From assembly GCA_003990765.1 (NCBI GenBank), contig RBNJ01000279.1, positions 1-34,298 on the forward strand: DNA of 34,298 nt, given 5' to 3'. This DNA comes from Jimgerdemannia flammicorona. Lineage: Eukaryota. Made by a program: the position numbers and the translations under genes. Shown piece after piece: positions 8,221 through 34,298 of this stretch (position 1 is the first letter of the stretch; each line of letters starts with the position of its first letter). A model generated the notes under the pieces. It was not told the DNA's origin. It saw only the letters and a list, made by a program, of their open reading frames with translations, and ran no database searches.

Positions 8221-8253
8221 AGGCTGGGTTCTCAAATTAAAACATTATTCAAT

Positions 8254-11990: not shown

Positions 11991-12030
<40 letters not shown>

Positions 12031-12033
<3 letters not shown>

Positions 12034-12109
12034 TCTCTTTAAGCTACTTTAGACTAACTAGAACTTCCAGATTTAGCCACTTTTTCTTAAAGAAACTAGA
12101 ATCATTATA
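12031..12109 (+). repeat. Element A 5' LTR, part 2 (3' end)
   Basis: Matches 17672-17750 and ends in ttata before the PBS. Confidence 0.9.
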
Positions 12110-12111
12110 CT

Positions 12112-12125
12112 TGGTAGCAATGGTG
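12112..12125 (+). promoter_or_regulatory. Primer-binding site of element A, probably tRNA-iMet
   Basis: TGGTAGC 2 nt after the LTR end; the same start as the initiator-Met PBS of Ty1/Ty3. Confidence 0.7.
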
Positions 12126-13178: not shown

Positions 13179-13589
13179 AAGCTCAAAATCAAGAAGCTTC
13201 ATCTGAAGGCCCAGACCCCTCAATATCAAACAGAAGAAGCTATTGGTCTTGACCTATACTCTGTCAAACAAGTCACCATTTCAGCTAAGAGCTGAACTCT
13301 GGTACCTACTAGAATTGCAGTTCAATATCCTGAAGGACATTATGCCCGAATTGTACTATGATCAGGACTCAGTGTCAAACATCATTTAGATGTAGGTACT
13401 GGTATCATTGACCCAGACTTTTGAGGACAAGTCTAAGTTCTGCTTATCAACCAGAAGGATCAAGACTACACAGTCAAGGAAGGAGACCAAGTTGCACAAA
13501 TGATCCTAGAAAAAGCCAGTCAACTTAAGATTTCAGAAGTCCAAGAACTCTCTGAAACCAAATGAAACTAAAAAGGATTTAGCAGCACC
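13179..13589 (+). pseudogene. dut: dUTPase domain of element A (between gag knuckle and protease)
   Basis: Recognisable trimeric dUTPase motifs: AIGLDL, (R)SGLS, VGTGIIDPDF(R)G, GDQVAQ, (R)..KGFSST. In frame with both knuckle and protease. Confidence 0.9.
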
Positions 13590-16500
13590 AATCAAGCAGC
13601 AAGTCTTACTGAAAATTGAGCTCAAACTATGCTCATTTTCAAAGGCTTAGTGAAAGGAAAAGAAGTTCAAGTACTTATAGACAGCAGAGCTACAGAGAAC
13701 TTCATCAATCAGAATCTCATCAAAAGCCTCAAGATTCTCACTAAGTCTGCACCCAAGAATAACAGTATAGTCTCTATAGATAGTACTCTATACCCCATTA
13801 AGTCAATTACTGCCAAACTATCCATCAAGATCCAAATATTGAGAATGAGTAGACTTTGAGTTTGCTCTACTAAGAGATCATGACCTGATCCTAGAAAAAC
13901 TCTGGCTTATAAAATATAATTCAGATATTGATTAATGTAAGAATAAAGTCACCTTACTTTAAAATGGAGCCAACATCACTATCAAGACAGACAAGACCAT
14001 GAGCAAGACCCAGATTGTAATACTATCAGCTATACAATACAAGAGAGCACTCAAGAAGATAATACATACCTTTATTGTAATAGTCTGTTCTAAGAAATAA
14101 GACAAGAGACTGTCAGTCAATAAAAGTGTCAAGTTACTACTAGAAGAATTCAAGGATGTCTTTCCAGATAAGCTACCTGGTCTACTGCCTACATGAGAAG
14201 TTGATTATGAAATTGAACTGATCCCAGGAGCTGTACTATCCAAGAAACACATGTACCATATGTCACCACTTGAAATTGAAGCAGTCAAGAAAGAATTAGA
14301 AGAACTACTTATACAAGGAGCCATTCAGTCAGTAAATCTCCTTATGGCTCACTAGTTCTATTCATCAAGAAGAAGGATAGTCCTTTGTGAATATATATAG
14401 ACTACCATATACTCAACAAGCTTACTGTCAAGAACTACTATCTACTACCCTTGATTGATCAAATCTTTAATGCTCTCAAGAATATCAAGTACTTCACTAA
14501 GTTAGACCTTATGTCAGAATACCACCAGATCCAAATCAAGCCAGAAGACATTCCCAAGACTGTATACCCTCTTTGGACTCTATGAATTCTTGGTCTTAGT
14601 ATTTGGTCTCACTAATATACCCACCATATTCCTGACCCTGATGAACAAGATATTCAAGGACCAACTATTTAGTTTTCTATTAATATATCTTGATAATATC
14701 CTGATCTTTAGCACAACTAAAGAAGAATATCTCAAATATATTTAAATAGTTCTGGAGATCCTGTAAAAATATAAGCTTTACACTAAGCTCAAGAAGTATA
14801 AATTCTTCAAGAAATAAGTCAAATATCTTAACCATATTGTCTCTGTATAAGGAATTCAAGTAGACCTATATAAGATAGAAGCAATTGAAGAATGACCCAG
14901 TACATTGAACCTCACAGAACTCTGATCCTTCCTTGGTCTAGCTGGCTACTACTGCTACTTTGTCAGAAACTTCTCTAGTATTGCTGAGCTACTGAGGAAG
15001 GCCCTATACTCAGATCACTATATACTCTATACCTGAGATATCTTTTGTCAACAAAGTTTTCAAAAACTCAAGAACTATCTGACTCATGCTCTAGTCCTGC
15101 ATAATGCAGATCAAGGCCTAAAATTCACAGTTACTACTGATGTATCAAATTTTACCATTAGAGTAGCCCTGTTACAAGATGATAATAAAGAATACTGTTC
15201 TATTACTTTTGAGTCACACAAATTAGCCCTGGTTGAAGAAAAGCTAGCCACTTATGAGAAGGAACTACTGACAATAATACATGCACTAGACCACTAGTGA
15301 TACTATCTAGAAAGTATTGAGTTTGATATCATTACTAATCATCAATCTCTCAAGTACATCAACACCCAACCTACTCTATTATATCTATAAGCCAAATAGA
15401 GCCTCAAGCTTCAAACCTTCAACCCAATGATCATCTACAAGTCTAGTAAGACACTTATAGTATCAGATATCTTATCAAGATACTCTGATCTTACTACAAT
15501 CATGCAAGTCACCTTGGAATCAGAATTTCTGGACCAAATCAGATAAGCTTACAAAGAAGATATAGTCATTACTAGAGTTTTTTTAAATGAGCTCAAGGAT
15601 ACATATACTGTTAAGAACAATCTGATCTATTATTATGACTAAGTCTACTTACCTGGAAACATAAACCTATACTATAAGGTTTTGCAAGAACACTATGACT
15701 CCCCTCTTGTCAGTTATATGAGAATTGAGAAAACTATCAAAAATATCCAACACTGCTATTATTGATCAAGCATGGTCAAGAAAATCAAGAACTATGTTGC
15801 CAGCTGTAATCTATACTAGTACAATAAGTCTACTAACCAAGTATCTACCAGTTTGCTACAACCACTGCCAATTCCTACTAAGAAATTCAAATAAGTTACT
15901 ATGAACTTCATAACTCAACTACCATGAACTCAATCTGGTACTGATACTATCATTATATTTATTGACCATCTGATCAAGACTATGGTTGCTAAACCAATCA
16001 CTACCAATACTACTATATCTGAGATTACAAGAATCTTCTTCAAGTTCATCTTCTGTCACTATGGCCTACCATGAGTAATTGTCAGTAATTGTGACTCTAA
16101 GTTTACTAGTTACTTCTAACAAACTCTCTTCAAGCTCCTGGAAATCCAATTGGCTATATCTACTGCCATTCACCCCCAAACTGATGGACAAACTGAGCAT
16201 ATGAATAGAACTCTAGAATAAAATACTTAGAAACTATGTTTCTTATAAGTAAGATGATTGGAACCACTATCTGACTTATGTGGAGTTCACATATAACAAT
16301 ACTGTCCAATCATCTACTGGTCTTTCCCCTTTCCAGTTACTATATGGTCAAGATTCTGAGACTCCTGCAAGTCTATTCTCTTTCAAGAAAAGCAGTCAAA
16401 TACAAGTCTCTACTACTAAGAGTCTTATAGACAAAATGGATGAACTACTCAAGATTGTTACCATGAATCTTCAGAAAGCTCAACAACATCAAGCCAAGTA

Positions 16501-16801
16501 TACTGACAAGAAATACTGCAATGTTACTTATACTATTAGAGATCAAGTTCTACTGTCTACCAAGAACCTTAAGATATAATCTCAAGTCAACTACCCTTTG
16601 AATAAGTTCCAACTCAAGTATATTGGACTTTTTGAGATTACTGAATAAGTCTCTGCATCCTCCTACTACCTCAAACTACCTGAAGCAATGAGAGTATACC
16701 CAGTCTTTCATATATTACACCTCAAGATCTGAAACCAGTTACCACTCTACTCTGGTCAAATTCCTAAGCCATCTGCCCTTATAATTATTGAGGACCATAT
16801 T

Positions 16802-16950
16802 GAGTATGAAGCTGAGAAAATTCTTGACAAATAAATCTACTACTGCTGTCCTAAATATCTAGTCAAGTAGATAGACTACCCTGAATATAATACTACCTGA
16901 GAACTACTGATCAATCTCAAGAACTCTCAAGATCTAGTTCAAGACTTCAA
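16802..16950 (+). pseudogene. Chromodomain at the integrase C-terminus of element A
   Basis: EYEAEKILDK..YLVK(W)IDYPEYNTT(W)E..NLKNSQDLVQDF. Confidence 0.88.
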
Positions 16951-17272
16951 GATAAAATACATTACCCAATCCCTATAGTGACTTTCTTGGATTATTGATA
17001 ACTTATAGCAATGACTAGTGCTTTATACATCAGAAGTTTACTTTGGGATCCAAGAACCAGCAGAATATTTAATGAATAAGAATTCCACTGAAATGAAGCT
17101 ACTAGCTGGGTTTAAACCCCTCTTAGTTGGTTAGTCTAGTAATAGTAATAGACTCTCTGCCCTATATAAGGATGACCAATCTCTGCCAATATACTCATAC
17201 AAGTTTGAGAAATTTTGGTTAAGTATATCTAGTCTTATATTACCTTAAAACTCAATAAGGATATTAGTTCTT

Positions 17273-17285
17273 AAGGAGGGAGGGA
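17273..17285 (+). promoter_or_regulatory. Polypurine tract of element A
   Basis: aaggagggaggga immediately before the TG of the 3' LTR. Confidence 0.85.
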
Positions 17286-17750
17286 TGTAATAGTTTTACA
17301 GTCATATTTAGTCTTAGTATATTTTCACATCTTTTAGTTAGTCTTTTCTTATTATTTCTTAAATATTCTACTATATTCCACTACCTTCTACTTGCTTAGA
17401 AACCTTCTCTCAGTGCTCAGACACTACTAGAATATTCTTATCTTTCCTTAGCACCAAGTATCTTATCTTAGCTAGTCATAGAACCTTTCAGAATATTATA
17501 GAATAGTATTAGTCAGCTTTGTCAAGAACTTATTTCTTAGCATTTCTCTTTCTTTCCAAGATCCTTCTGGATCTTTCTTTTAAATCATATATAAATATCC
17601 TTATTCTCTACCTGAATAAAGCTCAGAATATTTTCTCTCAGAAATTCTTCAAGAATACTTAAACCTTTAAAGTATCTCTTTAAGTTACTTTAGGCCAACT
17701 AAAGCTTCCAGATTTAGCTGCTTCCTCTTAAAGAAACTAGAACTATTATA
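17286..17750 (+). repeat. Element A 3' LTR (465 bp)
   Basis: Direct repeat of 4905-5293 + 12031-12109. TATATAAA at 17588 and AATAAA at 17615. Confidence 0.93.
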
Positions 17751-17755
17751 AGTGA

Positions 17756-18490
17756 AGTGTTTTCTGACTAAGTAGTAGTAGAACTTATCTACTGCTCAAA
17801 CTACTGCTAAGTATTCAAGCTTACATGACTTGTAGTTCTGTCCTACTCTGCAGGTACCTTGGCTTGTATAGGAGATAATATATTCATATCCATCTTTCTT
17901 CTGAACTAGAACTGCTTTAAGTCCTATAGTACTTATATCTGTCTGCAGGATGAACTCTAGGTTCCAATCTGGTCTTCTGAGGATGAGTGCTTGGGTTAAT
18001 CTGATCTTGAGTTTATTGAAGATTTCTTGATATTTCTTAGTCCATTCAAATTTGGTCTCCTTCTTCAGTAGCTTGTAGATAGGTGCTGCAATATTGGAGT
18101 ATTTTTTGATGAATCTTCTATAGTAAGAGGTCAGTCCAAGAAAGGTGTGGACTTCTGTAGTTGTTCTGGGTCTTGAGTAGACTGCAACAGCCTCAATTTT
18201 CATAAAGTCTATGTGAATTCCAGTCTGGTTGATGATGTGTCCTAGGTAGGCAATTTTCTAAGCTATAAACTTGTATTTCTTAAGCTTGATGTAGAGGCCA
18301 TACTTCTTGAGCTTCTCGAGAGCTAGCTGTATATAGTTGATATATTTCTATGTAGTATTGCTGAAGATGATCACATTATCAATATAGACAAAGAGCCATT
18401 TTACAATTATTACTGAAGACTCTATTCATTATTTGCTGAAAACTTGCTGGGAAATTACATATTCTAAATAGAATTTGCAGGTAGATATAG
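17756..18490 (-). pseudogene. Element C RT C-terminus/connection/RNase H segment
   Basis: YIYLQILFRM, VYIDNV (degenerate YIDD), FLGLTSYYRRFI, FILQTDIS, KLEYLAVV. Joins in frame to SAFIIPDT at 25232 after removing element B. Confidence 0.9.
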
Positions 18491-18494
18491 GTGA

Positions 18495-18970
18495 TGTAAC
18501 ATAGTGGATGCTTACTCTTAAAAGTACATCAGATTTCTGTATCTTGAAAACTTGACTATTCTGACTCTTGCAGAGTCTCTTGAAGTTGTAGGGGAGGGTG
18601 GGTGAGTTTGAAGTGTATCTGCCCGCAGGCTTACTAGTTCCTTTGCTATCTCTTTGCTTTGAACTATTTCGATCTGAGGTTTATTCACTTGAAGATACTG
18701 GGTTATTTATACAAGTTTGCTAGCTATGAGAGGGTGGCTAAGTAATAAATGAGTCATTTGGACTTTGTCGAAACATTTGGACAATATCTAAATGCTATAC
18801 TAAATCGGGGTATTCGATTTGGATAATGTCTAAAATTTAGACAATGTCTAAGGATTTAGACAATGTCGAAATTGAGGACTGCTAACTATAAGGTTATACT
18901 ACTTTGGGACTGGGTACGATCAAGTGTCTATTCCCTATTTCCTTCTTCCAAATTTGGCTGTACTGTTACA
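18495..18970 (-). repeat. Element B 3' LTR
   Basis: TG..CA termini; about 23 mismatches versus 24756-25231 by manual alignment. Minus-strand TATAAA at 18706-18711 and AATAAA at 18680-18685. Confidence 0.95.
18757..18871. repeat. Five copies of a 17-bp palindromic motif TTTRGACAATGTCYAAA in LTR U3
   Basis: Copies start at 18757, 18776, 18818, 18836 and 18855; the same array is in the 5' LTR (~25018-25132). Confidence 0.8.
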
Positions 18971-19034
18971 ACTTCCTCCTGAATGGATGGTCTTGTCCCT
19001 GAGGCATCTATTCAAACTCCCAGGCTTCAACGGT

Positions 19035-19469
19035 CTATATGGTCTTGTACTGTGCAATTTGCTGTATGACTGTTTCCCAATGATGTCTCTTCACTTTCTC
19101 AAAGTCAGTGAGAGTTACTCCTCTTAGGTAGTCTATTGCTGCTTCATCTTCTCAGAATAACTTGTGGATCCTTTTGGCAATAGTGATCTGTGAGTGAGAG
19201 AGTTGACACTCAGCAATCCAGTCCTCCTTGGTCTTTACTGGATCCTGATTGAGCACCTGTCCAAGCTTGAAGTACTCTTGGAATTCTATGTGATACTGAT
19301 AGGCTCTAAAGTGCAAGATCTGAGAGAGATGAGTCTGCACGATACTCTGAATATCCTCATAGTATACCTCTATGGTCGGAGGCTCAGTGGTGTGCCATTG
19401 TCTTTCGATGGCTCTTTGGGCAGCACTAGTGATCTTAAGTGCCATTATGGTACTTTTGTTACTGGCCAT
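19035..19469 (-). CDS. Uncharacterised accessory ORF (ORF3) in the env position of element B, one internal TGA (likely from CGA)
   Basis: ATG at 19469 overlaps the pol stop (19459-19461). MASNKS..IAKRIHKLF(*)EDEAAIDYLRGVTLTDFEKV..; similar to the ORF inside family C LTRs. Confidence 0.65.
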
Positions 19470-22400
19470 GATATTTCTTGAGTCAGTTTCAGTGAATGGT
19501 GGTGGGGATTATTGTGCCTGAGGGTTTTCGTAGCCAAAAGGTAGTCCCTTTTATATCTTACACAAGGTAAGGTCCTTCCTACTTGGGCTCCAGTTTTCAT
19601 GACCATGAAGCTTCTACCATGTTCCAATACACCAGGACCTTGTCTCCTATCTTGATAATCTCCAAGGGCTTGTGGATCTTTTCTGCATTCCTCTGTTGTA
19701 GTGTCTGTGTCTTGGTTATATAATTCTCAGCCTTTTTCCTGATTTGGTGTAGTCTCTGTATTTCCATGTCCACATGTTTCCATACAGTATCTCCATTGGA
19801 TGATAGGGTTCCTTGAGAACATTCTTCTCCAAACAGCATTTCTCAAGGGGTAAAGTGGATGCTTTGTGATTGGATATCCCAGAGAGCAGATAATGCTATT
19901 GGCAGATAGTGATCCCAGTTCTTGTAGTTATCACAGATCTTGGCGATAACATTCTTGAGGGTTTTGTTGGTCCTTTCTACTTATCTGTTTCCTTGGGGGT
20001 GATAGGCTGTGGTCTGAATGTGCTGGATCTTGTACTTCTTGTAGAGAACCTCAAAGAGCTGGTTCACGAATTCTGTTCCTCTATCTGTAGTTACTTGTGT
20101 TGGGGTCTTGAACTGGCAGATGATTTTCTTGTGGAAGAAATCGGCGATTAACTGTGCATTGGCTTCCTTGAGGGGTCCTGCTTCTATCTACATATTTTGT
20201 AAAAAGGTCTACAATGACAATGATGTATTGATTACCAGTCAGGGTCAAGGGTAGAGGGCCGATTACATCCATTGCTATATGGGCAAATGGTACTGGTTCT
20301 ATGTGTGCTGATCCTGGGACTTGATTCCGTTGGTCTTGTTTCTGTTTCTGGCATTTGTCACATGTTTTGATGAATTGTCTGATATCTTCCTCCATCCCTG
20401 GCTACCATATTGTTCTTCTTGCTTTATCATGTGTATTCATTCCTCCTAGGTGGCCAAGTTCATGTACTGATTTCATCACTTGCTCCTTCTTGTATTCTGG
20501 TATGACCAGTAGTTTTTCTTTCTTCAGTGTTTCTCCATCGGTTTCAAATTGTTTCCATATCCTGTTGATAATCGTTTGTGTCTATTCTTCCAGATGTTGG
20601 GGCATCTTTCGCTATCCCAGGTATGTGATGATTCCATAGTAAAACTCCTTATTCATGATTGATTTGTTGGTTGGAGGTAGTTTGAGGTGTCTGTGAGAGA
20701 GCATCTGCATTGAAATTTGTTCTTCTAGGGCAGTGCACGATGGTTACATCATAGGCTTGTAACTTCATTATCCATCTGGCATAGATTCCCTTGGGTTGTC
20801 CGGTTGTCAGTAGCCAGGTGAGAGCTGAGTGATCTGTCTGGATGGTGAAGTGTCTTCCGGCCAGATAGTAGTGGAACTTTTCCACAGCCCAGATGACTGT
20901 AAGGCATTCCAACTTGTAGGACTCATATTCTTTTTCAGCCCCTCGGGTTCCATGGCTAAGATATGCAATGATATACTCTTTTTTGTCTTCTTTTTGAGCC
21001 AGGACTGCTCCTAGTTCCTGTGCGCTTGCATCTGTCTGAAGGATAAATTCTTGGGTCCAATTGGGTCATCTGAGGATGGGTGCCTGAGTTAGTCTGATCT
21101 TGAGTTCATCAAATGCTTTTTGTTGTCTGCCAGTCTACTGGAACTTGGCATCCTTCTTGTTGAGTTCATAGATTGGACCTGCGATGTTGGAGAATCCTCT
21201 AATGAATCTGCAATAGTAGGAGGCAAGTTCCATGAAGACTTGGGCTTCTGTGACAGTAGTGGGCCTTGGGTATGCTGCTACCGCTTATATTTTGAGGGGG
21301 TCCATGTGTGTTCCATCTCGATTGATAATATGGCCAAGATAGGAGATCTTGATTTCTGCAAACTTGCACTTCTTGGGTTTGATATAAAGGCCATGTTGTC
21401 TTAGTTTCTCCATTATCTGCTGTATGTACTGCAGATGTTCCTCAGGTGTCTTGCTGTAGATGATTACATAATCGACATAGACCATCATCCATCTTCCCAT
21501 ATCATAGCAGAAGATTTTGTTCATCATTCGCTGAAAGCTTGCTGGTGCATTGCACATTCCAAATGGCATTCGTAGATAGATGTAGGTTCCATCTGGGGTG
21601 ATGAAGGCTGACTTTTCACTTGCCATTTCTGTGAGTCCAATTTGGTGGAATCCTGAGTATAAGTCCAGGGTGCTGTAATACTGTGCTTCATCTCCCAGTA
21701 TTATAAGGATGTCACTGATGAGTGGCAGTGGTTGACAATCCTTCTTAGTAACTGCATTGAGCTTTCTGTAGTCGACACAGAGCCTTGGGGAAAATTCTCC
21801 AGATTTGCTTCCTTTTTTCGGAGCTAGTATAACTGGTGAAGACCAGGGGCTACTGGCTTCTTTGATGATGCCGGCTTCTTCCATCTGCTTGATTTCTTCT
21901 CTGAGCCATTCTCGGTAGGCTGGTGGGACAGGTCTTGCCTTCTGGTAAATTGGTTCGGTGTCTCCAGTATCTACCTCATGATAGTAGTGTGGGGTCTTTC
22001 CCTTGATATCCTTGAAATCCGTGACAAGGACATCCTCAAATTTGTGGAGTATTTTCTTGAGTTCTTCCTTGAGTGGGAATTTGTCTCCAATGGTGTAACT
22101 GTGCTTGCTCATGTTTTTCTCCTTCTTATGCTCAAGTTCGGTGATCTTGGTGCTGGCAAACACTCCTCTTCCTGTGGATCCGAATCCTTTCTTTCCTCTT
22201 TTCATTTCCTCCAGATTCTTGACTTCTATGATCCTTGGCTATATCATTGGGAAGATCAACATCTGTGCCAATTAGTCCTTCTTCTTGACTGAGAATGGAA
22301 TTGTAGGATTGTGGTTCCTAGCAATGAGTAGAATTTCTCCCATATAGTCTGAATCAATGACTCCTCCTTCGATTGTGATTTCACTTCTAGCCAGGCTGCT

Positions 22401-24641
22401 TCTTATCTTGAGAATCCTGACATGATCCTTTGGGATGGTCATCTCTAGTCCAGTTGCAAGTAGCGTGGTTGTCTGGGGTTCGAGTATAGTTTCTTCTACT
22501 GTAGTGATGTCCATTCCAGCTGCATTTTCTGACTTATATTCTGGCAAGACTGCATCAGGGTGGATCTTTCGAATCTTGACCTTGATTTCTTCTTCATCAT
22601 CACTGTCCTCCAGGAGGGCTGGTGGTTCATCATCTTCCTCCTTCTCTTCTTCCCTGATCTGTTTCTTGAGAGTTTTCTGGCTTCTTTCCTAGTAGATCTT
22701 CCTGGTTTCATTAGTGCACTGGTAGCAATCATTGACATGCTCCATACAGTACATCTTGATTCCATGAGGACAGACTCCTTGTGGGGCATAACCTTCTGCG
22801 ATCTTCTTGCACTATTCTTCTTCACTCATCCATCTAACTTTCTTCTTCTTTGGGGTAGTCACCATATAAGCTTCCTCTTGCTCGCTCTCTTCTTCCTCCA
22901 TATCAGGCAGAACTCCTTTATTGACATTGATGGGAATTCATATCTTCTGTCCCTGGTAGGTGATCTGCATCTTCTGAGCATTGAGATCGATTACTGCCTT
23001 GGCTTTGTGAAGCCATTGATTGCCGATGAGGATGTCATAGTTGGTGGCATTGGTTACAATTATATCTACTGGGATTGTTGCTCCTCCAATCTTAATGGGA
23101 ACATCTTGGATCTTTCCCAGAGGTGTGGCTCTTGTGCCATCAGCTGTGACAAATATTAGCTTAGTTGCTTCTTCCACATCCCAACCTAGGTGGTCTGCTG
23201 CCCTCTTACTAAGGAGACATCCTCCTGCTCCTGTGTCAATGATGGCTTCAAAGACTCAATCCTCAATTTGGCATGTTGCATAAGCAGAGGTTTTGCGATT
23301 GTCCTCACTTTCTTCTCCTGAGTCCTCTTGAACATTATTGGCCTCGGTTATCTTCCATCCTTATTCCTTGGTTGTTTCAGTAAGTCCAAACCTCATTTGC
23401 TGTCTGAATGTTGGGATTTCTGCAAGCTGACCAAAGGTTGCATTGACCTTTTGTTGACTGAGATCCTTGAAGATATTATACTTGAAGGTCTTGGTCTTGC
23501 GAAGCTTCTTTTCTTTTTCTCCTTCACTGGCTGGAGTGGTTCCTTGGATGATATCTTGAACTGCTTGCTCCAGCTCGATATTCTGGTCCATCTCTTCAGC
23601 TTGGCTTTCTGTATCAGTTTTCATCCACTTTTCCACTGGGTTCTTCTTGGGTCTTCCTGGCAGTCTCTTGTAGGGTTCTTTGCGAGCATCCTTCTTAGTG
23701 GTCTGAGCAGGATAGGCCTCCCATTCCTCTTCATCGGATTCTCTGATTTCTTCAAAGGTGATTGTATTGGCCTGCTCCTTGTTTCATGTAGCATTGCTTG
23801 ATTGAGCCTTGCATTTGGTTTCACTCATACATTCATAGGAGTAGTGGCCTTCTTCTCCACAGCTGTAGCAGGTACCTTTCTTATTGTCTGAGGTGGTGGC
23901 AAACTTCTGAACAGGGCAGCAATCTCTTCCTCAGATTTCCTTTACCACATCTCCCAGGTGGGTGGTCATTTCAGCAAATCTTTTGGCGAGTTCCTCCATA
24001 GGGTCACTGTTCTTTTGCTGCTCTATAGCTTTTGGCTGAGGTGTGTTTCGATTGATCATTGTGGTGGAGATCACACTGGTTGCCTTGGGTGCCTCAATTC
24101 TGACTTTTGTAACTCTCTCCATTATATGGTCTTGTGGGTGTCTGGCTATCCAGTATTGCTGAGCATAGGTGACCTTTTGTGGCAGATCCAGAATTACTGG
24201 TGATGAGCAGATGGCCATGGCTATTTCTGGATGAACTCCTTTCATAAAGGTTGCTTCGGCTACTTGATCTCGGATAGCAGCAGCATAATCTGCAAGGATT
24301 ATCTAATATCAAATTCTGGTATAGAATGTGTTTGGATCCTTACTTATTTCTTGGCACGTTATGTTGAGCTGATCCTTCAGGGCTTGCTTGATCTCATCTG
24401 TGTAATATGTGTTTCGGAGCCAGGTCTTCTGTGCCGTCAGTATGGCATCACCATCATTTCCTGCATGGGTTGCAGCTGTGAATGCTGCTCTGGCAGGGCC
24501 TCATAGGCTAAAGGGCATGAGGGCTACTTGCTGTACTGCTATCAGAGTCCTTACAGCAGCATACTGCTTGAAATCATCAATGAAGGTGATGATTGATTCA
24601 TCTGAGGTATATCCATGGAATACTGGTGGTCTCATATCCAT
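19459..24641 (-). pseudogene. gag-pol: Element B gag-pol polyprotein
   Basis: CYSCGEEGHYSYEC knuckle (23829-23870), AIIDTGAG protease (~23235), dUTPase, RLCVDYRKLN/DLYSGFHQI/YVDY (RT), TDHSAL (RH), CDKC + IAMDVIGPLP (IN), GPY motif. Several stops and frameshifts; start approximate. Confidence 0.93.
22170..22586 (-). pseudogene. dut: dUTPase domain of element B (between protease and RT)
   Basis: AAGMDI, RSSLA, GGVIDSDYMGE, KKD(*)LAQ, RGKKGFGSTG. Confidence 0.92.
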
Positions 24642-24734
24642 CTTGTCTGGGTATTGGGGCTTGGTTTGTATTGTTGTTCGGGTGGTGGTGGTTGTTCATT
24701 GTTTAGCTTGAAAGTGAGGGATTCATCTTGAATC

Positions 24735-24752
24735 ACCAGCCAATGGGTACCA
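24735..24752 (-). promoter_or_regulatory. Primer-binding site of element B (TGGTACCCATTGGCTGG; cognate tRNA not identified)
   Basis: TGG begins 3 nt (ACT) after the 5' LTR. The same PBS, decayed, is in element C at 28421-28438. Confidence 0.7.
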
Positions 24753-24755
24753 AGT

Positions 24756-25231
24756 TGTAACATAGCAGACACTTACTCTTGAAAGTACATCAGATTTCTG
24801 TATTTTGAAAACTTGACTGTTCTGACTCTTACAGAGTCTCTTGAAGTTGTAGGGGAGGATGGGTGAGTTCGAAGTGTATCTGCCCATAGGCTTACTAGTT
24901 TCTTTGCTATCTCTTTGCTTTGAACTATTTCGATCTGAGGTTTATTCACTCGAAGATACTGGGTTATTTATACAAGTTTGCTAGCTATGAGAGGGTGGCT
25001 AAGTAATAAATGAGTTATTTGGACTTTGTCGAAACATTTGGACAATATCTAAATGCTATACTAAATTGGGGTATTCAATTTGGATAATGTCTAAAATTTA
25101 GACAATATCTAAGGATTTAGACAATGTCGAAATTGAGGACTGCTAACTATAAGGTTATACTACTTTGAGACTGGGTGCAATCAAGTGTCTATTCCCTATT
25201 TCCTTCTTCCAAATTTGGCTGTACCATTACA
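24756..25231 (-). repeat. Element B 5' LTR
   Basis: 476-bp direct repeat of 18495-18970. Confidence 0.95.
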
Positions 25232-25235
25232 GTGG

Positions 25236-28200
25236 TATCAGGTATAATGAAGGCTGATTTCTCACTGAAATCTTGAGTAAGACCAATCTGATAGAAGCCT
25301 AAGAACAGATCCAAGGTAGTATAGTATTTGGCTTTACTTCCAAGGATAGTAAGGATTTCTTGAATATTTGACAAGGGCTGCCTATTCTTCTTAGTAATTA
25401 CATTGAGCTTTCTGTAATCAATGTAGAGTCTTGAAGCAAACTCTTCAGACTTTTTTCCTTTCTTTGGGACAAGGATAATAGATGAAGCCCAGAAGCTGAT
25501 AGCTTGCTTAATAATTCCAGCTTCTTTCATTTTCTTGAGTTTTGCTTGCAGCCATTCTCTGTAGGCAGATGGTATAGGTCTGGCTTTCTGGTAGATGGAC
25601 TTGGTATCACTAGTGTCAACTTCATGATAGTACTTGGGTTCTTAATTGTAGATGTCCCTGAAGTCTATGGCAAGTATTTCTTCATTCTGGTGCAGAATCT
25701 TGAGAAGTTGTTCTTCTAGGAGAAGGTTTTCTCCAATGGTATATATGTACTTGTTCTGATCTGTGTCTTTCTTATGCTTGAGTTTGATAATCTTGGTGGC
25801 AGTATAGGCTTCTCTTCCAGTAAATTCAAAGTCTTGTTCTCTTCTCTTAGTCTTGATGAGTTCAATAGCTTCAGCAATCTTGAACTTCTTGATCTCATGA
25901 ATCAGTATTAGGCCAATTCTGTCATGCTTCTTGACTTTGAATAGGGTGGTGGGGTTGTGATTCCTGACTATGAGGAAGATCTCACTAGTGTAATCAGGGT
26001 CAATTACTCCTCCTTTAACTGAGATTTCACTTTTGGCCAGACTGCTCCTGGTCTTGATAATTCTGGCATAGTTCTCTGGCAACTTGACTCTAATTTCAGT
26101 ACCAAGTAGAGTAGTGGTCTATAGTTCAAGGATAGCATCTTGAATGTTGGTAAGATCTATTCCTATAGCTTCTTCAGTCTTGTATTCTGGGATCTTAGCT
26201 TCAGGATGAAACTTCTTAACCTTGAGAGTGATGTCTGATTCTTGTTCCTCCTCATTATTGCTATCAGATTGAAGTTCTGGGGGTTGGTCATCTTCTTCAG
26301 CTTACCTTTTTGTTTTAGCAGCTTCTTGCTCATACTTTTGTTGGTGAATTTTCCTGACTTTACTGATATAGGTAAGATAGTTATTCAGGTATTCAGAGCA
26401 GTACATTCTAGTACCATGGAGGCATCTTTCTTAAGGAGCATAGTTATTGATGATCTTGTTGTACTACTGCTCATCTGTGAGCTTGGGTGTCTTGCTCTTA
26501 TTCTTATATACTGAGTGTATGAAAACTTCTATATCTTTTTCATCTCCTTTCTTCATATCTGGTAGTACTTCTTTGTGGATATTGATAGAGACTCATACCT
26601 TTCTTCCTCTATAGTTGATCTGTATCTTCTGGACATTAAGATCAATGACAGTCTTGGTCTTGTGAAGCCATTGATTGCTAATAAAGATGTCATGGTTGGT
26701 GGTACTTGTAACAATCATATCTACTGGGACAGTAGCTCCTCCTATCTTGATAGGGACTTCTCAGATCTTGTCTAGAGGGGTAGCTTATATACCATCTTCT
26801 GTAATATAGACTATTTTGGTAGACTCTTCAATGTCCCAGCCTAGGCAGTCAATTATCTTCTTGCTCATAAGGTATCCTTCAGTACCAGTATCAATAATGG
26901 CATTAAAGATATACTCTTCAATCTGATATAAGATATAGGCTGATATCTTACACTGGTCTTCAGATTCTTCATCTGAGTCTTCTTGTTCATCTTCTTATAT
27001 ATTATGAGCATCTATGATCTTATACTCTTGGTTCTTGACAGTGATTATAAGTTCTACTCTCAACTGCTGTCTGAAGGCAGAGACTTCAACTAGTTGTTCA
27101 AAAGTAGCATTGACCTTCTATTTCTTAAGGTCCTTATAGATATTATAAGTGAATCTTAGTCTTGCACAGCTTTTGTTCTTTCTTGCTTTTACTTTCTCCT
27201 GAGACTGGAGTAGTGCCTTCAATAATTTGGTAGACAGCTTCATCTAACTCAATGTCTTGATCAATCTTCTTAGGTTGGATCTTACTTTGAATAGTAATAG
27301 CTAGGGTCTTCTTTGGTCTTCCAACTGGCTTGCTGTTACTCTTCTTGTCATAGAGCTTGGACTGGGTTCTGGTACCTTCAGTAACAGGGTAGAATTTAGT
27401 CTCCTCATAGTATTCTTTATTGTCAGTGTCACCAATCTCCTCAATGACCACTGTATTGATTTGTTCTCTAGTTCTGATAATATTGCTTGATTGGGCTTTA
27501 TATCTTATTTTGGTTATATAACTCTTTACATAGTGGCCTTCTTCTCTATATCTGAAGTATATGATATTGCATTCTTCTATAGTAACTGAAAATCTCTATA
27601 CTGGTCTCCTGTTGATACTTCAGACTTCTCTAATAACATCACTAAGGTGTGCAGTCATCTTGGTAAACTGCTTGGTAAGTTCCTCTATTGGATCAGTGTT
27701 GGCTATCTTGGGAGTAGGTGGGGATGGTTATCTGTTTACAACTATGATAGGTATGATACTGGTTGACTTTTGTAACTCTATCTTGATGCCAGTTATTTTT
27801 TCCATTGAGTGTTCAGTGGAATGTCTAGCAGTCCAATATCTCTATGCAAAGACTACTTTCTGATCAAGAGTCAGAGCAGCTGGAGTAGACTGGATTGCTA
27901 GGGCAATTTCAGGGTGGACTTCTTTGAGAAAGGTTGAATCAGCTATTTATTCTTTGAGGGTATCATCATAGCCAACCAAGATAATCTGATAGCAGATTCA
28001 GATATAGAATGAGTTGAGATCTTCACTGAGTCTCTGGCAGATAGTGTTGAGTTGATTCTTGAGAGCTTGCTTGATCTCTTCAGTATAGTATATAGTTCTG
28101 AGAAAGTTCTTCATATTGGCAAGTTTGGCTGCACTAGCATCAGCAATGGTGGCTATATTGAACTTGTCTCTGGCAGATTCTCTGAGGCTGACAGATAGGA

Positions 28201-28330
28201 GGGCTAATTGTATATCCACAACAAGGACTTATATAGTGGCAAATTGTTCAAAGTCTTCAATAAAGGTCAGAATTAACTCTTCAGTAGTATATCTATAGAA
28301 TGTGAGGGAATATATTTCTATCTTATCTTG
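25236..28330 (-). pseudogene. gag-pol: Element C gag-PR-dUTPase-RT(N-terminal) segment
   Basis: Colinear with B: YYTEEIKQALK, degenerate knuckle YFRYREEGHYVKSY, AIIDTGT (~26890), dUTPase, RLYIDYRKLN, DLFLGFYQI. Confidence 0.9.
25816..26229 (-). pseudogene. dut: dUTPase domain of element C
   Basis: AIGIDL, RSSLA, GGVIDPDYTSE, HDRIG, RREQDFEFTG (degenerate RG..GFGSTG). Confidence 0.88.
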
Positions 28331-28441
28331 AATTCTTATAGGGATGACTCTTGTAGTCAGAGTAGTTGTTGTGGTAGTTGTTTATTTTTCAGCTTAAATG
28401 TGAGAGATTCATCTTGAATTACTAGCCAATGAGTATCAAGT

Positions 28442-29975
28442 TGTTATGTAGTAGTCACTGAGTCCTTCAAATATATCAGATTCTCTTCAAGGTACATAAG
28501 TTTGTTATAAGCAAGTTCTTATTGGAGTATCTTCCTAAGATCTTATAGTCCTCAAACTTCTTATCTTTAAACTGTCTTACATATTATCTCTTATATTGCT
28601 TGTATGGAATTGAGTATAAGTAAACTAGACCGACTTTATTTTAAAGGAAATAAGAGGGATATTTATATAAAATATAATTTAATAGTTGCTAAGTTATAAA
28701 GCTAAATATAAATTCCAATAACCAAATAAAATACTGAAATACAAAAAACTATAGTTATAAGTGTAAATTCAAGTATCTGTACAAATGATTGCACAAGTTC
28801 AAGATGCTAGTAGATTTTGATAGTATAGAAAAAGAGTACTGATAGAATTCAGTTATATAGAAAAAGAATGCCAGAAGATTTCAGTATTACTAAGAACTTA
28901 GAGCAGAATGTTTAGGACTATGGGGGCTTCATCTTCATCACTACCAGAGGTCAGGATACTCTCAAAGAAAATGAGGTCTATAAACATTTTGTCCATTTCA
29001 CATATTTCATATGTATCATATGGGATGACATCATCATGAGTAATGTCATCTCATTTGGTGGCAGGGAAAGTAAGGAGATCTGGGGCTCTCCAATCTATAA
29101 GGTTCTCTTCTACAAAATAAGAGACAAATGTGGGATCTTGGGGAGGTCTAATCTGGATGCTGGGGTCTTGGAATACTGAGATCAATCCTTATAGGAATTG
29201 ATCAGAATTGTCCTCAAGGATGGGATTCCAGAACTCTCCTATCTCATCACTATTGAGAATGATAGTGGACTGAGCTTCCGTGGCCACTATAATCTCTAGT
29301 ACATTGGTATGGCAGGCTGATAGTTTCTTGAAGTCTGAGATTCTAGTATACTCCAAGTTGGGGATTGACTATAGTGTATGTCTGAAGATCTGATAAATCT
29401 TCTTTGCTATCCTTATTTTATATATATCCATAGAGATGGCATCTTGAATCTCTTGGGAACTGATCTGAGGGAATTTCCAGTAGAGAAGGTTTCCTATTTC
29501 ATACTTCTACTATATTCAGAAGTATTTGATATTAATGGTGATCTTTGTTTCCATTTCACAGTGATAGAGGATATAATGATAAGAGTTACTAATACATAGG
29601 TTGAGGCTAGGAGTCCTTCTTGTGTGAGTTCTCATAGCTCTTCTGATGTCTTGGAATATTCTTTCCTGGACTGAGAGATCTTGATAGTTTCTGAATCTTG
29701 AGGTTTGGTAAGTGGTAGATATTTGTTTATAATAAAGTCTTTTGAACTATTTCTGTGAGTCTTGTTTGGGTTACTGCTATTGCAGTTTCTTGATCTTTCT
29801 TTTATATTCCTCAAGATATCTATCTTGTGGTCATAATAACTCACAGTTAGTCATTATTACTCATCTTATAGCCTGGGTGAGTCATACTATATGATCTTCT
29901 TATGCTATGATCTGGTGACTTATAAGAAAAGACTATCTTCTATAATAATGTCATTATTCTGAGATTACTATTATA
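28442..29975 (-). repeat. Element C 5' LTR (1534 bp) containing an ORF
   Basis: Reverse-complement homology to 30902-32510 at both ends and internally. Adjacent ACT+PBS. Minus-strand TATATAAAT at ~28661-28669 and AATAAA at 28635-28640. Confidence 0.9.
28898..29854 (-). pseudogene. LTR-embedded ORF3 homologue (319 codons, single frame, transition-type stops)
   Basis: ..RIFQDIRRAMRTH..YEIGNLL..IRIAKKIYQIFR..IPNLEYTRISDFKKL..EFWNPILED..DWRAPDLL..; one frame by my translation, conserved in the solo LTR. Confidence 0.7.
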
Positions 29976-30472
29976 ATATATATCTTATGCTAAAAATAAG
30001 GTCTAATATATTATATACTATAAATAAGATGGTATAGTATTTCTTCTTCTATAATAATTTGCATTAAAGTATCATTAAGAGAAATTTTAGATATCTTAAG
30101 AGTATGATATACTATATACTCACTCTTAGTAGATTAAGTAAGAGTAATAATAATAACATTATTATTATATAGCTATCTGGTATATATAATACTAATTGAA
30201 TAGATAATTTAGATAACTACTAATCTATAACTAGATATCTTTTCCATATTAATAACTAAGGGTCTATTATCTCATAACAAATATATAAACAATTTCCTAT
30301 TACAATATCATCTATAGAAGCTAAATATCAGATATTATTATTGATAATAAAGAAATCTATATAGCTTCATCAATTTATTAAAGAGCTTGACTTCATCTAG
30401 AAGTATAACTCTATACTTATTCTATAAGATAATTAATTAATAATTATATTGGCAAAAAATCTAATATATTAT
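29976..30472 (+). pseudogene. Ty1/copia RT C-terminus and RNase H relic, hypermutated
   Basis: YLMLKIRSNI (=TRPDI), KRNFRYLK, YNTN* (=DADW), SITRYLF, S*QIYKQ (=SWQ..KQ), SSIEAKY (=SSTEAEY), DN*LII.LAKN (=DNQSAI.LAKNP). Confidence 0.85.
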
Positions 30473-30901
30473 AAACTCTATGTATAACTTAGCAAATGTG
30501 AATTTTTACTTAAGAAAATTTAATTTTTAGATTATATTATTACTTCTAATAAAATTAAAGTTAACTTAAATAAGATTTCAATAATTAAAATAATTAAGAA
30601 ATAGCTTTAATCTAAGAAGATTTATAATCTTAACTCATTCTTAAAACTGATTAACTACTATTGAAAATTTATTAAAAAATTTACCAAAATAACTACTATA
30701 ATTATCCAGTTACTCAAAAGTGATAAAAAATATAAAAAAACAGACTTTATTAATCTTATAAAATAGAAATCCAAATGTTATAAAATATTTTAAATATTAA
30801 ATAATACTCTGATCACTACTTCTGTTCTTTAAGTATCTAACTCTATACTATTTTATAAGATGACTACTGATATCTTAGACTGAGTTCTTAAAGCTATATA
30901 T
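30473..30901 (+). pseudogene. Ty3/gypsy RT/connection relic, part 1, hypermutated
   Basis: KLYV*LSKCEF, FLDYII, SFLKLINYY*KFI, TTDILD*VLKA (=TTDASD..LGA). Confidence 0.82.
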
Positions 30902-31019: not shown

Positions 31020-32049
31020 ATGATAACTAACTATAAGTCATGATGACTATAAGATAGATATCTCAAGGAATATAAAAGAAGAACTAAAGAACTACAGCAG
31101 CAGTAACTCAAACAAGACTTACAAAATCCTGAAATAGTTCAAAGACTCACTATAAATAAAATATCTACTGCTTATCAAACTGCAAGGTCCAGGAACTACC
31201 AAGGGATTCTCAGTCCAAGAAAAGATATTTCAAGACATTAGAAGAGCTATGAGAGTCTATACCAGAAGGATTCCTAGCCTTAACCTAGGTACTAGTGACC
31301 CTTACTACTTTATTCTCTACTGGAGATAAGGATTACTATTACTACTGAATGTCTTTAGATATGGTAGGAATATAAAATAAGAAATCTCCTCTGCTAGAAA
31401 TTTCCTCAGGCCTATCTCCAAGAGATACAAGATATTACCTCTATAGATCTATATGAATTGAGGATAGCTAAAAAGATCCATCAGGTCTTCAGGTATGTAT
31501 CTTGATCAATCCCCAACTTGGAGTATACCAGAGTCTCAGACTTCAACCTACTATACAGATACACTAGAGATCATGGTGGTTACAAAAGTTCAATCCATCA
31601 TTACTCTTAAAGAAGAGTTCTGGAATCCCATTCTCAAGGACAACCCAGATCAATTTCTATAAGAATTAATCTCAGTATTCTAAGATCCCAGTATCCAGAT
31701 TAGACCCTCTCAAGATTCCACCTTTATCTCCTACTTTGTGGAGAAAAATATCATAGACTAGAGAGCCTCTGATCTCCTTACTCTCTCTGCTACCAAACAT
31801 GATGATATTATCCTGCTAATCAAAATACATGAAAAATGTGAAACATGTAAAATATATAAAACACATAAAACACACAAAATATACAAAATATACAAAATAT
31901 GTAAAATATGTGAAATATACAAAATAGATGAGATACTTATAGAAATATTCACTGACCTTATTTCCTTCAAAGACATCCTGTCTCTGACCTCTAGTCTTGA
32001 TGACAGTGATGAAGATAAAGTTCTCAGTATTCTGAACATTCTGCTCTAA
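31020..32049 (+). pseudogene. LTR-embedded ORF3 homologue in the solo LTR (frameshifted)
   Basis: LRIAKKIHQVFR..SIPNLEYTRVSDF..EFWNPILKD..LNILL*; same terminal stop as the copy at 28898. Confidence 0.65.
31822..31920 (+). repeat. 9-bp tandem repeat (~11 units, RAAAYAYRY) in frame within the LTR ORF
   Basis: aaaatacat gaaaaatgt gaaacatgt aaaatatat aaaacacat aaaacacac aaaatatac..; only ~2 units at the equivalent place in 28442-29975. Confidence 0.8.
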
Positions 32050-32514
32050 GTTATTTATATAACTGTCAGAAATTATTCCAGCATTCTGATCTTGTACAAC
32101 TAATTGTATAGATACTAGAATTTGTAAAATTTCTGTATTCAAATATCTTATTTGATTATTAGAATTTATATTTAGTTTTATAACTTAGCAATTATTGAAT
32201 TATATTTTGTATAAATATCTCTCTTATTTCCTTTGAATTAAACTCAGTATTCTAATACTTAGTATTCAAACACTCAAGCATTCAAGTACTCAACTACTCT
32301 GAAGTACAGAAGTTTCAGTCCTCTACTCAATTCCAAGCAAGCAAATCCAAGAGATAATAGAATAGTTTAAAGATAAGAAGTTTGAGAACTATAAGATCTT
32401 AGAAAGGTACTCTAATAGAACTTGCTTATAAGAAACTTATAGTTGGTCTAAGAGATACATCTTAAAGATAATCTGACATACTTGAAGAACTTAGTACTCA
32501 CTATATGACAATAT

Positions 32515-32999
32515 ATATAAGAAGGATACCCAATTGTCTACTATATCTGAAGTTCAATAAAACTAAAATCAACTATATAATTTATAAATATATATAAATA
32601 TATATATATTAATTATTATAAATACTCTAATTAGATAGCAATCTTATCTTAAAGAAGTATACTTCATAATTATCATAGATTATAAGTCTCTGACTAATTT
32701 TAAGATACATATAAGCTACTCTTTCTCAAAAATAAGTCTATTGGATAAAAATTCTTATCAACTTTGAATATAAGATTTAGTATTACTCTAGTAAGAAAAA
32801 TACTATAGTTAATACTATTTCTAAATTATTAATTAAAGATATTATCAAGACTCTCACTCTTATAACAAACTCTGTTATATTATATATATCTAATATTATT
32901 ATATTATTATATTATTATTTAATAATATTTTTTACTATTTGATCTCTTTAAGATTATTATTAGTAATTAAGATTTGAAGTTTACTAATTATTTATATAT
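32515..32999 (+). pseudogene. Ty3/gypsy RNase H relic, part 2, hypermutated
   Basis: EGYPIVY, KFNKTKINY, FIIIIDYKSL (=F.V.TDHKSL), YYSSKKNTIVNTISK (=YRPGK.N.VADA.S). Confidence 0.75.
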
Positions 33000-33126
33000 T
33001 GTAACAGTGATCCCAGAATGATGACATCAGTACAGGAGACAGTCTTTCCTTGCAAGTCACCAGATCGGAGCACAAGAAGATTATACAGTATATGAGATGA
33101 ACAATGATGATCAACTGTGAGTCATC
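33000..33126 (+). repeat. 5' fragment of another family C LTR
   Basis: tgtaacagtgatcccagaatgatgacatcagtacaggagacagtc.. matches the 30902 start; preceded by atat; broken at ~33126. Confidence 0.85.
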
Positions 33127-34298
33127 AGCTCCTTTCTCTGCTACCTTACTAGTCACAAGGTTTGGTAGGCAACCTTCTGAGTCCCCTTTCCCCTATTATT
33201 ACCCTCTCTACCTCGGATTGGTTTGCTATGCCTGCAGGGGCATGGTGGGAGGAGGGCAATGGTGATGAGTTGCCCCTTTATCGGTGTCAGATCGGTGCTT
33301 CCTCCACTTTTTTGCAGATTCTGGTGCCTTCAGCTGCATCTGGGGTATATCTGTTTTGGTGTGGCACCTTCTTCCTTTTGCCATTATCAACAAGATATTG
33401 TCTCAGTGTGTCTTGGGCTATGTAGGAAGTCGGCTGACCTTGGGCATCAAGTACTCAGTGTAGGTTACCTGCAGGTCCTCAGTGCCTGTAGTGGAGCCCT
33501 CTGGCTTTGGCAAGCTTCCCGGCAAGCATAGTTCTGGTGTAGGTGACTGCTTTTCAGGTGTTGTCGGGATGGGAGGGGAGATGGCTGTCACAGATAGGAG
33601 GAAGGGCAATAACGGTGAACCAGTAGGGTGCCAGGCTGGGGGTGGTCATTGGGGCTGGGGCAGGTGCTGCTTTGATGGGACCTTTTGATTGGTGCAGTAT
33701 AGTTAGGTGGTAGGTATCACTATCGGCTTCTTTTGGTAGTCAGCGGGGTTGGGCCCCAGTCATCAGGGGGGGTCAGGAGGCCTGAGGCTACCCATTTCAG
33801 ATATCTTGGCTATACTCAACTAGAACCAGGAGCTGATATAGCAATGTGATCAAGACCCACAGGCTTGAGTAGTGGGGTATTGGGGGTTTCCTCCCACCTC
33901 ATGTGTAAGTCCTTTACTCACCTTGACTGGGAGAACCAGGCCCTACCCACTGTATTGTACTTTGATGAGAGTTTTTTCTTTACCTGTCATTCTCTTTGGG
34001 GTGGCAGGAGCTATTCTATTCAGCTCGGGCATGGCCTTGTACATATGTTGGGTTCTCAGGTGTGCACTTTCGGTCATTGGCATATAGTTGGGTTTCCCCT
34101 GGTGGTAGGGAGAGCATGGTGTGCAGAATGAGGTACAGGCCTAATCGGCCCTGCTGCACCTGGTATGGTCGAGCTGCTGGATAATAGCTAGCCTAGGTTA
34201 ATGGGGGGGCAGTGCTTGGTGGGTAGTGGGGGAGGTTTTTGGCCTATATAGTCTAGGTTCCCTTCCAATAAAAATCTGTGGAACATAAGTCTGTTAAA
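33127..34298 (+). mobile_element. Probable 5'-truncated L1-like LINE (third family), ORF2 C-terminus plus long 3' region
   Basis: VLPPLFCRFW..LHLGY resembles the PPKFW..LGY block of the other LINEs. CLGLC-x7-H-x4-C (33409-33461, needs a 1-nt indel). G-rich plus strand; AATAAA at 34267. Poly(A) and TSD are not visible in the window. Confidence 0.5.

Follow-up and report, generated by a model that had tools for sequence, protein, structure and literature searches.

The window analysed here is a stretch of 34,298 nucleotides from Jimgerdemannia flammicorona (contig RBNJ01000279.1, positions 1 to 34,298 of the forward strand), which self-comparison and Pfam scans resolved into a nest of retroelements. 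This report concerns positions 28442 to 29975, the 5' long terminal repeat (LTR) of a Ty3/gypsy element of family C (copy C1), and the remains of an accessory gene in its U3 region. An earlier reading made from the DNA letters (the sequence-only reading) had delimited the same unit and placed in it a 957-nt sense-strand open reading frame (ORF). Its boundaries for the unit were borne out by the termini and by the adjoining primer-binding site (PBS) and gag region, which is homologous to that of a second element, family B. The features of the C1 LTR and its inner flank are the following:

28442 to 29975, minus strand: 5' LTR of the family C Ty3/gypsy element (copy C1), 1,534 bp, with TG(A)...CA ends, delimited by self-blastn against the second copy C2 and family B and by alignment
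29845 to 29975, minus strand: conserved LTR 5' end (att side), ~130 nt common to C1, C2 and an LTR variant, D
29799 to 29809, minus strand: TATA1 (GAATATAAAAG), from which the LTR gene is putatively transcribed, 77 nt before the start codon of the relic
28898 to 29722, minus strand: accessory gene relic of C1, 274 codons plus TAA, with the start codon lost, six internal stops and no frameshift
28660 to 28669, minus strand: TATA2 (TATATAAATA), putative LTR promoter for genomic RNA, in a block conserved with the B LTR and with the metagenome locus L001
28635 to 28640, minus strand: AATAAA polyadenylation signal, 29 nt after the start of TATA2
28416 to 28441, minus strand: PBS region common to B, by homology

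Judged from its termini and flanks, the segment 28442-29975 is a genuine LTR, the 5' LTR of an old, decayed Ty3/gypsy element. Its first letters, from 29975, are TATAATAGTAATC, which is TGTAACAGTGATC altered by transition, the initial TG having become TA; the unmutated TGTAACAGTGATC stands at 33000, at the start of variant D. At the other terminus, at 28442, it ends in ...CATAACA, and the PBS/gag region homologous to B follows directly. As the unit, including the gene, sits upstream of the PBS, the gene lies inside the LTR. Rfam and tRNA scans of the whole window gave no matches. The second copy and the variant are found beyond C1:

30902 to 32510, plus strand: copy C2, 1,609 bp, a family C solo LTR in inverted orientation, 0.9 kb from C1 and not followed by a PBS
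31161 to 32049, plus strand: gene relic in C2, with the start codon lost, stops present and two reading-frame changes
33000 to 34298, plus strand: LTR variant D, cut off by the end of the window, with the first ~130 nt as in C and then ~1.1 kb of G-rich cargo that is unrelated

C1 and C2 are 76.1% identical (1,162 of 1,526 aligned positions, with 270 transitions and 94 transversions). Their termini coincide and are of the TG..CA type, and the flanks of the two copies are unrelated. C2 is bracketed by ATAT on both sides (30898-30901 and 32511-32514), the same size as the 4-bp target-site duplication of B. It could be argued that the 1.5-kb unit is a short LTR joined to an unrelated insertion, or a local duplicate of such a compound, given that C1 and C2 are inverted and just 0.9 kb apart, that a local inverted duplication is conceivable, and that the ATAT flanks of C2 are low-complexity. 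However, both ends of C2 match the TG..CA ends of C1, variant D, in a third context, has its start at this very nucleotide, and relatives of the gene are present on many separate contigs. A short LTR in C would moreover need a TGTAAC-type start or a polypurine run at the spacing seen in B, ~265 nt before TATA2, and neither was found there in C1 or C2. We regard a composite unit of this kind as very improbable.

The sequence-only reading had taken the frame 29854-28898 to be open throughout and to start at 29854, neither of which held. In the standard code this frame contains 10 internal stops in addition to the terminal stop, and no ORF of at least 150 amino acids (aa) is listed within it. The relic starts at 29722, 132 nt further downstream; the 132 nt upstream of it are noncoding, and hold 4 of the 10 stops as well as the TATA box of the gene. 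An alternative genetic code was considered and rejected: no subset of stop reassignments opens the frames across the window, and the stops are thus the result of decay and not of a code change. What did stand was the placing of a sense-strand gene inside the U3 of the C LTR, as the relic lies between the LTR start at 29975 and TATA2 at 28669, and the motif positions likewise confirm that the extra length of the C LTR falls in U3, upstream of the TATA/AATAAA block. The claim of an ORF in U3 is accordingly kept for a real gene with intact homologues, and corrected in that the copy is decayed, not open, and that its start had been misplaced.

The frame 29854-28898 is poor in stops: its 319 codons contain 11, where Markov-1 simulations predict 23.6, and in 3.1% of these simulations (probability 0.031) the best of the six frames was as stop-poor. 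The reality of the gene was settled by database homologues. A stop-masked translation was used as phmmer query against 1,835,955,588 representative proteins with a cut-off of E<=0.001, which gave five matches, four of them true relatives:

P0001: 247 aa, 62% identity to the query, E 1.6e-89
P0002: 138 aa, 68% identity to the query, E 3.5e-41
P0003: 214 aa, 38% identity to the query, E 4.9e-37
P0004: 342 aa, 34% identity to the query, E 1.5e-26

The fifth match, a repetitive bacterial protein (E 5.7e-4), was discounted. A profile search added P0009-P0014; the nine near-length matches all come from jgi/ena metagenomes and none of them is named. Aligned with the full-length P0009 (271 aa), the C1 relic is identical at 177 of 270 aligned residues in the single frame 29722-28898, all indels are of whole codons, and the six internal stops fall on W, W, Q, W, Q, and R of P0009. 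A hidden Markov model (HMM) of the family recovers the relic as one domain in one frame (E 5e-106). In a metagenome scan, 60 pattern matches led to two loci, L001 and L002, which carry intact ORFs at 69-1040 and 376-1251, respectively. Differences between C1 and L001 are distributed over codon positions 1/2/3 as 95/73/155 (p = 5e-8), and those between the intact pair L001 and L002 as 125/100/169, in counts for which the protein-guided alignment slightly favours a third-position excess. The stop density of the relic (6/274 codons) is not above that of the C gag-pol frame (35/1,069). On the strength of these homologues and of the codon pattern, the relic inside the U3 of the C LTR is what decay has left of a protein gene that is real and conserved.

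None of the 11 members of the family reaches any Pfam cut-off (best E 0.026). When all frames of C1, C2, and D were scanned on both strands, the only Pfam hit was Med31 at E 0.032, below its cut-off. No relatives were found among 41 pattern matches in viral contigs or 33 in prokaryote genome contigs. Fused forms were not detected among 5,385 longer candidates, a negative that is weak evidence.

The solo LTR C2 keeps its relic in U3, in agreement with the earlier expectation that the gene would be retained in solo LTRs. In a six-frame search with the family HMM, this relic was recovered in pieces in two frames. An AT-rich imperfect repeat insertion of ~60-100 nt (AAAATA/CATG-type units; 31822-31920, plus strand) is present in its C-terminal part and missing from C1. 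The stops in C1 and C2 arose by C-to-T and G-to-A transitions.

The LTR of family C is laid out as a 5' end of ~170 nt, TATA1, a leader of ~77 nt, the 274-codon ORF, a spacer of ~230 nt, TATA2, and AATAAA. TATA1 and the leader (...AAGACTCACTACAAACAAA-ATG) are kept in C1, C2, L001, and L002, that is in 4/4 sequences reaching that far, despite the fact that the proteins of these four are just 38-66% identical. The TATA2/AATAAA block is kept in B, C1, C2, and L001, and an upstream ATTACTTAGCCA box within it is common to B and L001. With TATA1 and the leader upstream of the ORF and TATA2/AATAAA after its stop, each LTR looks like a self-contained gene, and from these conserved motifs the gene appears to have its own promoter. 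Transcripts started at TATA1 would run through the ORF and be polyadenylated at the signal of the LTR itself, resulting in a monocistronic mRNA of ~1.2 kb that could be made from either of the two LTRs as well as from a solo one. The genomic RNA would start from TATA2, at or just past AATAAA, and we propose that it thereby escapes that signal in the 5' LTR. By virtue of its position in U3, the gene would also be copied into both LTRs by reverse transcription.

A 33-nt motif (GTCAGGCGGAAC...) is present twice in L002 (170-202 and 1481-1513), in copies that are 82% identical and whose score was reached by 0/500 shuffles. One site is situated ~95 nt upstream of the TATA box of the accessory gene and the other in the putative U3, after the junction of polypurine tract (PPT) and TGTAAT; the motif may be a shared regulatory site. 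No motif common to both promoters was detected in B, C1, and C2, where 52, 406, and 500 of 500 shuffles, respectively, reach the observed score.

The proteins of the family have an isoelectric point of 4.5-4.9 and contain no hydrophobic or membrane segment (maximum Kyte-Doolittle 0.74). The N-terminal 60 residues are basic in the C clade (13 K/R in P0009), and the core carries the conserved motifs W-EYEIG, AKKIHQVFRH, FWNPILQDNPDQFLQGL, and IDWR. The tail varies in length from 56 to 126 aa, with 18-28 D/E versus 2-4 K/R, is rich in F/W/Y/L, and terminates in P-x-[ILV]-L-N-F. An intact copy is thus predicted to encode a soluble, acidic protein of ~270-340 aa that belongs to no known family and has a conserved helical core. 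Composition would fit a nuclear, transactivator-like regulator that boosts the expression of the element itself, which is our most likely guess and a tentative one. A role as RNA-export or packaging adaptor, or as an antagonist of host silencing, is possible as well.

The explanation that we consider best, and likely, is that the segment is the decayed 5' LTR of family C, with a complete small gene in its U3 that is served by its own TATA box and by the shared polyadenylation signal. The gene might instead be a passenger, captured from the host or a foreign source and without a role in the life cycle of the element, as no function has been assigned to it and as accessory ORFs of LTR retrotransposons are often captured, such as the ORF3s of bdelloid elements in the portions of that study drawn on here (PMC5408684). 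Against a passenger speaks that no cellular homologue was found, with no named protein among the nine near-length matches, none among longer proteins, and no Pfam family. In addition, TATA box, leader, and gene have stayed together in element families with protein identities of just 34-63%, and the flanks of the gene are of LTR type wherever they are visible. We find a mere passenger quite unlikely.

Several observations weigh against this explanation. Both copies of the gene in the window, C1 and C2, are dead, with none intact, and the homologues all lie on short metagenome contigs (600-4,848 bp). The 3' LTR and PPT of the C element fall beyond the nested insertions and off the window, which leaves one 5' LTR and one solo LTR to carry the LTR status, and the ATAT flanks of the latter are within a (TA)n tract, where matching is cheap. 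L001 comes without both LTR ends and so gives no proof of a U3 position in a second family, and the homology of the region found in family B (see below) is only moderately significant and covers half of the protein. The promoter, the polyadenylation site, and expression are read from conserved motifs only. As to the protein, the arginine-rich N-terminus is not conserved in P0004, and a sequence search of the PDB returned no matches at E<=1. In the ESM Atlas, the best feature score (0.83) and the best template modelling score (0.33) were both at chance level. An AlphaFold2 model from an 11-sequence alignment was unusable, with a mean predicted local distance difference test (pLDDT) of 39.5 and a predicted template modelling score (pTM) of 0.35. 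With such a model and no lead from Pfam, PDB, or Atlas, composition is the sole basis of the functional guess.

A probable relative of the gene is found on the other side of an LTR boundary in family B, the element inserted in C. The relevant features are:

18495 to 25231, minus strand: family B element, inserted in C, with 476-bp LTRs and the order gag, protease (PR), dUTPase, reverse transcriptase (RT), RNase H (RH), integrase (IN)
19008 to 19445, minus strand: probable homologue of the accessory gene, truncated, between IN and PPT of B, with two internal stops and an ATG at 19445
19548 to 19556, minus strand: TATA1-like ATATAAAAG, ~100 nt upstream of the ATG of this relic
18972 to 18980, minus strand: polypurine tract of B, AGGAGGAAG, directly before the 3' LTR start TGTAACAGT

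Self-comparison confirmed the 476-bp LTRs that had been ascribed to B (18495-18970 and 24756-25231, 476 bp each, 95% identical, TGTAA...GTTACA). The element is flanked by a target-site duplication of 4 bp (CCAC/TCAC), and the reading frame of C is restored across it. Pfam domains zf-CCHC, PR, dUTPase, RVT_1, RNase H, and integrase were identified in B, and the order gag-PR-dUTPase-RT described earlier for both B and C was likewise recovered with Pfam. The RT of B is 75% identical to a metagenome protein; among named proteins, the closest ones reach 42-45% and belong to Glomeromycotina (Entrophospora, Dentiscutata, Rhizophagus), which points to a host that may be a fungus.

Within B, the region 19424-19050 matches positions 25-148 of the family HMM, which is the N-terminal half, at E 0.0011, and among 228 six-frame chunks of the window it is the only match below E 0.01 outside C1 and C2. 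With hhalign, the same region gave P 3.6e-4 over 74 columns. The homologue is truncated, since the PPT and the LTR take the place of the C-terminal ~110 residues. At the DNA level, the 3' internal region of B and the C LTR have no similarity beyond the TATA block and the U5 end, and tblastx of the B region against the C LTR found none at 1e-3. A single-sequence Smith-Waterman comparison of the region gave z = 5, yet 1/200 shuffles equalled the score; the homology is backed by profile methods only. The TATA1-like box of B lies in the coding sequence of the C-terminal (SH3-like) region of IN, and the ATG of the relic follows almost directly after pol; with the box inside the IN coding sequence, promoter and pol overlap in this internal state.

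The same arrangement is seen in L002, in which the intact ORF is directly followed by AAGGAGGGAGGAT and then TGTAATAAG, a PPT with a B-type TGTAA LTR start. With B and L002 carrying the gene upstream of the PPT and C carrying it in U3, the gene occurs on both sides of the LTR boundary. The sequence-only reading had held that both states are present in this one window; this stands for C in U3 and, as a probable homologue, for B upstream of its PPT, with the restriction that the B copy comprises the N-terminal half only.

On these comparisons, the gene appears to have crossed the LTR boundary on at least one occasion. One way in which this could have occurred is a shift of the plus-strand priming site from downstream to upstream of the gene, from the state of B and L002 to that of C, or the reverse. 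Such a shift would account for the same-looking unit of TATA1, leader, and ORF on either side of a PPT/TGTAA junction, and the distances are compatible with it, as the B LTR starts 265 nt and the C ORF stops 229 nt before TATA2. However, neither a fossil PPT nor a TGTAAC is present after the ORF of C1 and C2, and the 3' junction of C is off the window. Variant D also bears on the question. Its 3' part carries TATATAG...AATAAAA near 34249-34280, and its cargo resembles nothing else in the window, lacks a long ORF, and gave no Pfam match, so that D looks like the same LTR frame with a different U3 cargo. A moved priming site would not lead one to expect different cargo where the 5' end is shared. 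We hold such a shift to be possible but doubtful.

Alternatively, the U3 segment between a fixed 5' end of ~130 nt and the TATA2/AATAAA block may be exchangeable, with the TATA1-ORF cassette placed there by recombination or by template switching during reverse transcription. Consistent with this, D combines the first ~130 nt of C and its arrangement of TATA..AATAAA with ~1.1 kb of unrelated cargo. B, C, and D all begin with TGTAACAGT, which indicates that the att end was kept and not newly created, and the 170 nt before TATA1 in C are without similarity to the C-terminal region of IN in B. A parallel is provided by the fungal crapaud elements, in which variation restricted to U3 and located upstream of the TATA box is partly attributed to recombination, according to excerpts of the report on them (PMC10787394). 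On the other hand, no recombination junction was identified, D is incomplete with its internal part unseen, and a TGTAACAGTGAT-like string (10/13 bases) at the end of the L001 ORF could be a fossil LTR start, a weak hint for a shift of the PPT. The cargo of D, the common start, and the lack of similarity before TATA1 fit an exchangeable U3 segment somewhat better than a moved boundary, and we rate exchange as a plausible course with slightly less than an even chance of being the right one.

The sequence TATATAT precedes all three LTRs of the C/D type (29976-29982, 30895-30901, and 32993-32999), ATATAT also follows C2, and the spacers around these LTRs have a G + C content of 17-19%. The TATATAT and ATATAT flanks suggest that LTRs of the C/D type insert into (TA)n tracts.

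The remainder of the window consists of the interrupted C element and of the elements inserted in or next to it:

25232 to 28415, minus strand: C internal region with gag, PR, dUTPase, and the RT start, cut by B (dUTPase 9.9e-18, RVP_2, RVT_1) and collinear with B
17751 to 18494, minus strand: continuation of C beyond B, RT-RNase H, identified with Pfam; the frame continues across B
4732 to 4902, minus strand: last piece of C (RNase H), beyond element A, followed by a minus-strand long interspersed nuclear element (LINE) that runs off the window
4904 to 17750, plus strand: element A, a third gypsy element, which interrupts C; gag, dUTPase, RT, RH, IN, SH3

The domains of C present in the window are PR, dUTPase, RVT_1, and RNase H, and its IN is off the window. 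A G-rich LINE (5294-12027), which ends in a poly(A) tail, divides the 5' LTR of element A. Within element A at 12110-17284 (plus strand), the dUTPase (Pfam 3.8e-30) comes directly after gag and before a protease-like LIDSRA, recognized by eye and without a Pfam match, and the 3' end encodes an SH3_Tf2-1 domain and a stretch that by eye is chromodomain-like. Unlike in element A, the dUTPase follows PR in B and C, so that gypsy families differing in the place of their dUTPase coexist in this genome. RVT_1 was found in both LINE-type elements (1-4731, minus strand, and 5294-12027, plus strand), the second with its poly(A) tail at ~11990-12027. Both are extremely asymmetric between the strands, with a GC skew of ~0.5 on the sense strand and an observed/expected ratio (o/e) of CpG of 0.02, and ~800 nt of their RT regions are 65% identical.

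In the old elements the CpG o/e is 0.00-0.05; D has 0.18 and B, the youngest, 0.22. Retroelement bodies and C LTRs have a high CpA+TpG index (1.06-1.46), and values below 1 were confined to the 3' LTR of A and the AT-rich spacers. Differences between copies are mostly transitions. With this high index and a CpG o/e of ~0, classic repeat-induced point mutation was rejected as the main cause of decay. The pattern fits deamination of methylated CpG combined with a general GC-to-AT drift.

Genes inside LTRs are a textbook feature of a few complex retroviruses. In open-access papers and bioRxiv, we found no LTR-borne protein gene in Ty3/gypsy or any other retrotransposon. The unusual features of the present case are a conserved, unannotated protein family, an apparent promoter of its own, and relatives with the gene across the PPT. 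A more far-reaching proposal, which we put forward as speculative and on balance improbable, is that every LTR of one dUTPase-bearing Ty3/gypsy lineage would be an autonomous Pol II gene, complete with TATA box, leader, ORF, and poly(A) signal, and would encode a new, element-specific nuclear regulator comparable in its action to complex-retroviral transactivators. If this is true, each transposition adds two copies of the gene, solo LTRs stay behind as free-standing copies, the element spreads its own regulator through the genome, and sister lineages with an internal gene record the move across the LTR boundary. If upheld, these elements would provide a natural series for the evolution of LTR boundaries and U3 cargo, and would bear on how simple retroelements gain regulatory genes and on solo LTRs as dispersed protein-coding genes. 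Genes of this kind would be hidden from view by annotation pipelines in which LTRs are masked as non-coding.

Among retroviruses, mouse mammary tumour virus (MMTV) sag and the 3' part of nef of the human and simian immunodeficiency viruses (HIV/SIV) are genes in or overlapping U3. Like the gene described here, MMTV sag and HIV nef are sense-strand U3 genes, copied to both LTRs and located upstream of the core promoter and polyadenylation signals. Sag and Nef have no Pfam-level sequence relation to the protein of the C LTR, and the host element of C differs from theirs in being Ty3/gypsy without env. Moreover, nef only overlaps U3 and is made from a spliced, LTR-driven mRNA, whereas the C gene is wholly in the LTR and has an apparent TATA box of its own.

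In foamy viruses, the accessory genes tas and bet are served by an internal promoter. They resemble the present gene in being accessory genes at the 3' end of the element with a promoter separate from that of the LTR, and the paired 33-nt motif of L002 recalls the shared transactivator response elements of the foamy virus type. The tail of the C-family protein is acidic and hydrophobic, like an activation domain, in a comparison of the Tas type in which transactivation is an analogy only. There is no homology, and B, C1, and C2 gave no motif common to both of their promoters.

Gypsy elements that bear a dUTPase are known from basidiomycetes, Tuber, and bdelloid rotifers, as far as the consulted sections of two studies cover them (PMC2864245; PMC5408684). 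The bdelloid Vesta, Juno, and TelKA elements are described in the latter as dUTPase-bearing, with an ORF3 downstream of pol that typically forms a separate transcription unit. In these sections, the placement of ORF3 matches the internal state of B and L002. The phrase 'within the LTR' has 0 occurrences in this source, and the ORF3s that it describes are internal and enzymatic or env-like (GDSL, DEDDy, transmembrane), whereas the C gene is without a known domain and inside the LTR (PMC5408684). For crapaud, excerpts of the corresponding report state that most of the divergence among subfamilies falls upstream of the TATA box, in the 5' half of the LTR, and that LTR types recombine with each other (PMC10787394). 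This variation resembles that between C and D, with the difference that, in those excerpts, the variable part of crapaud is <200 bp and noncoding, and that here it is ~1.1 kb and, in C, protein-coding (PMC10787394).

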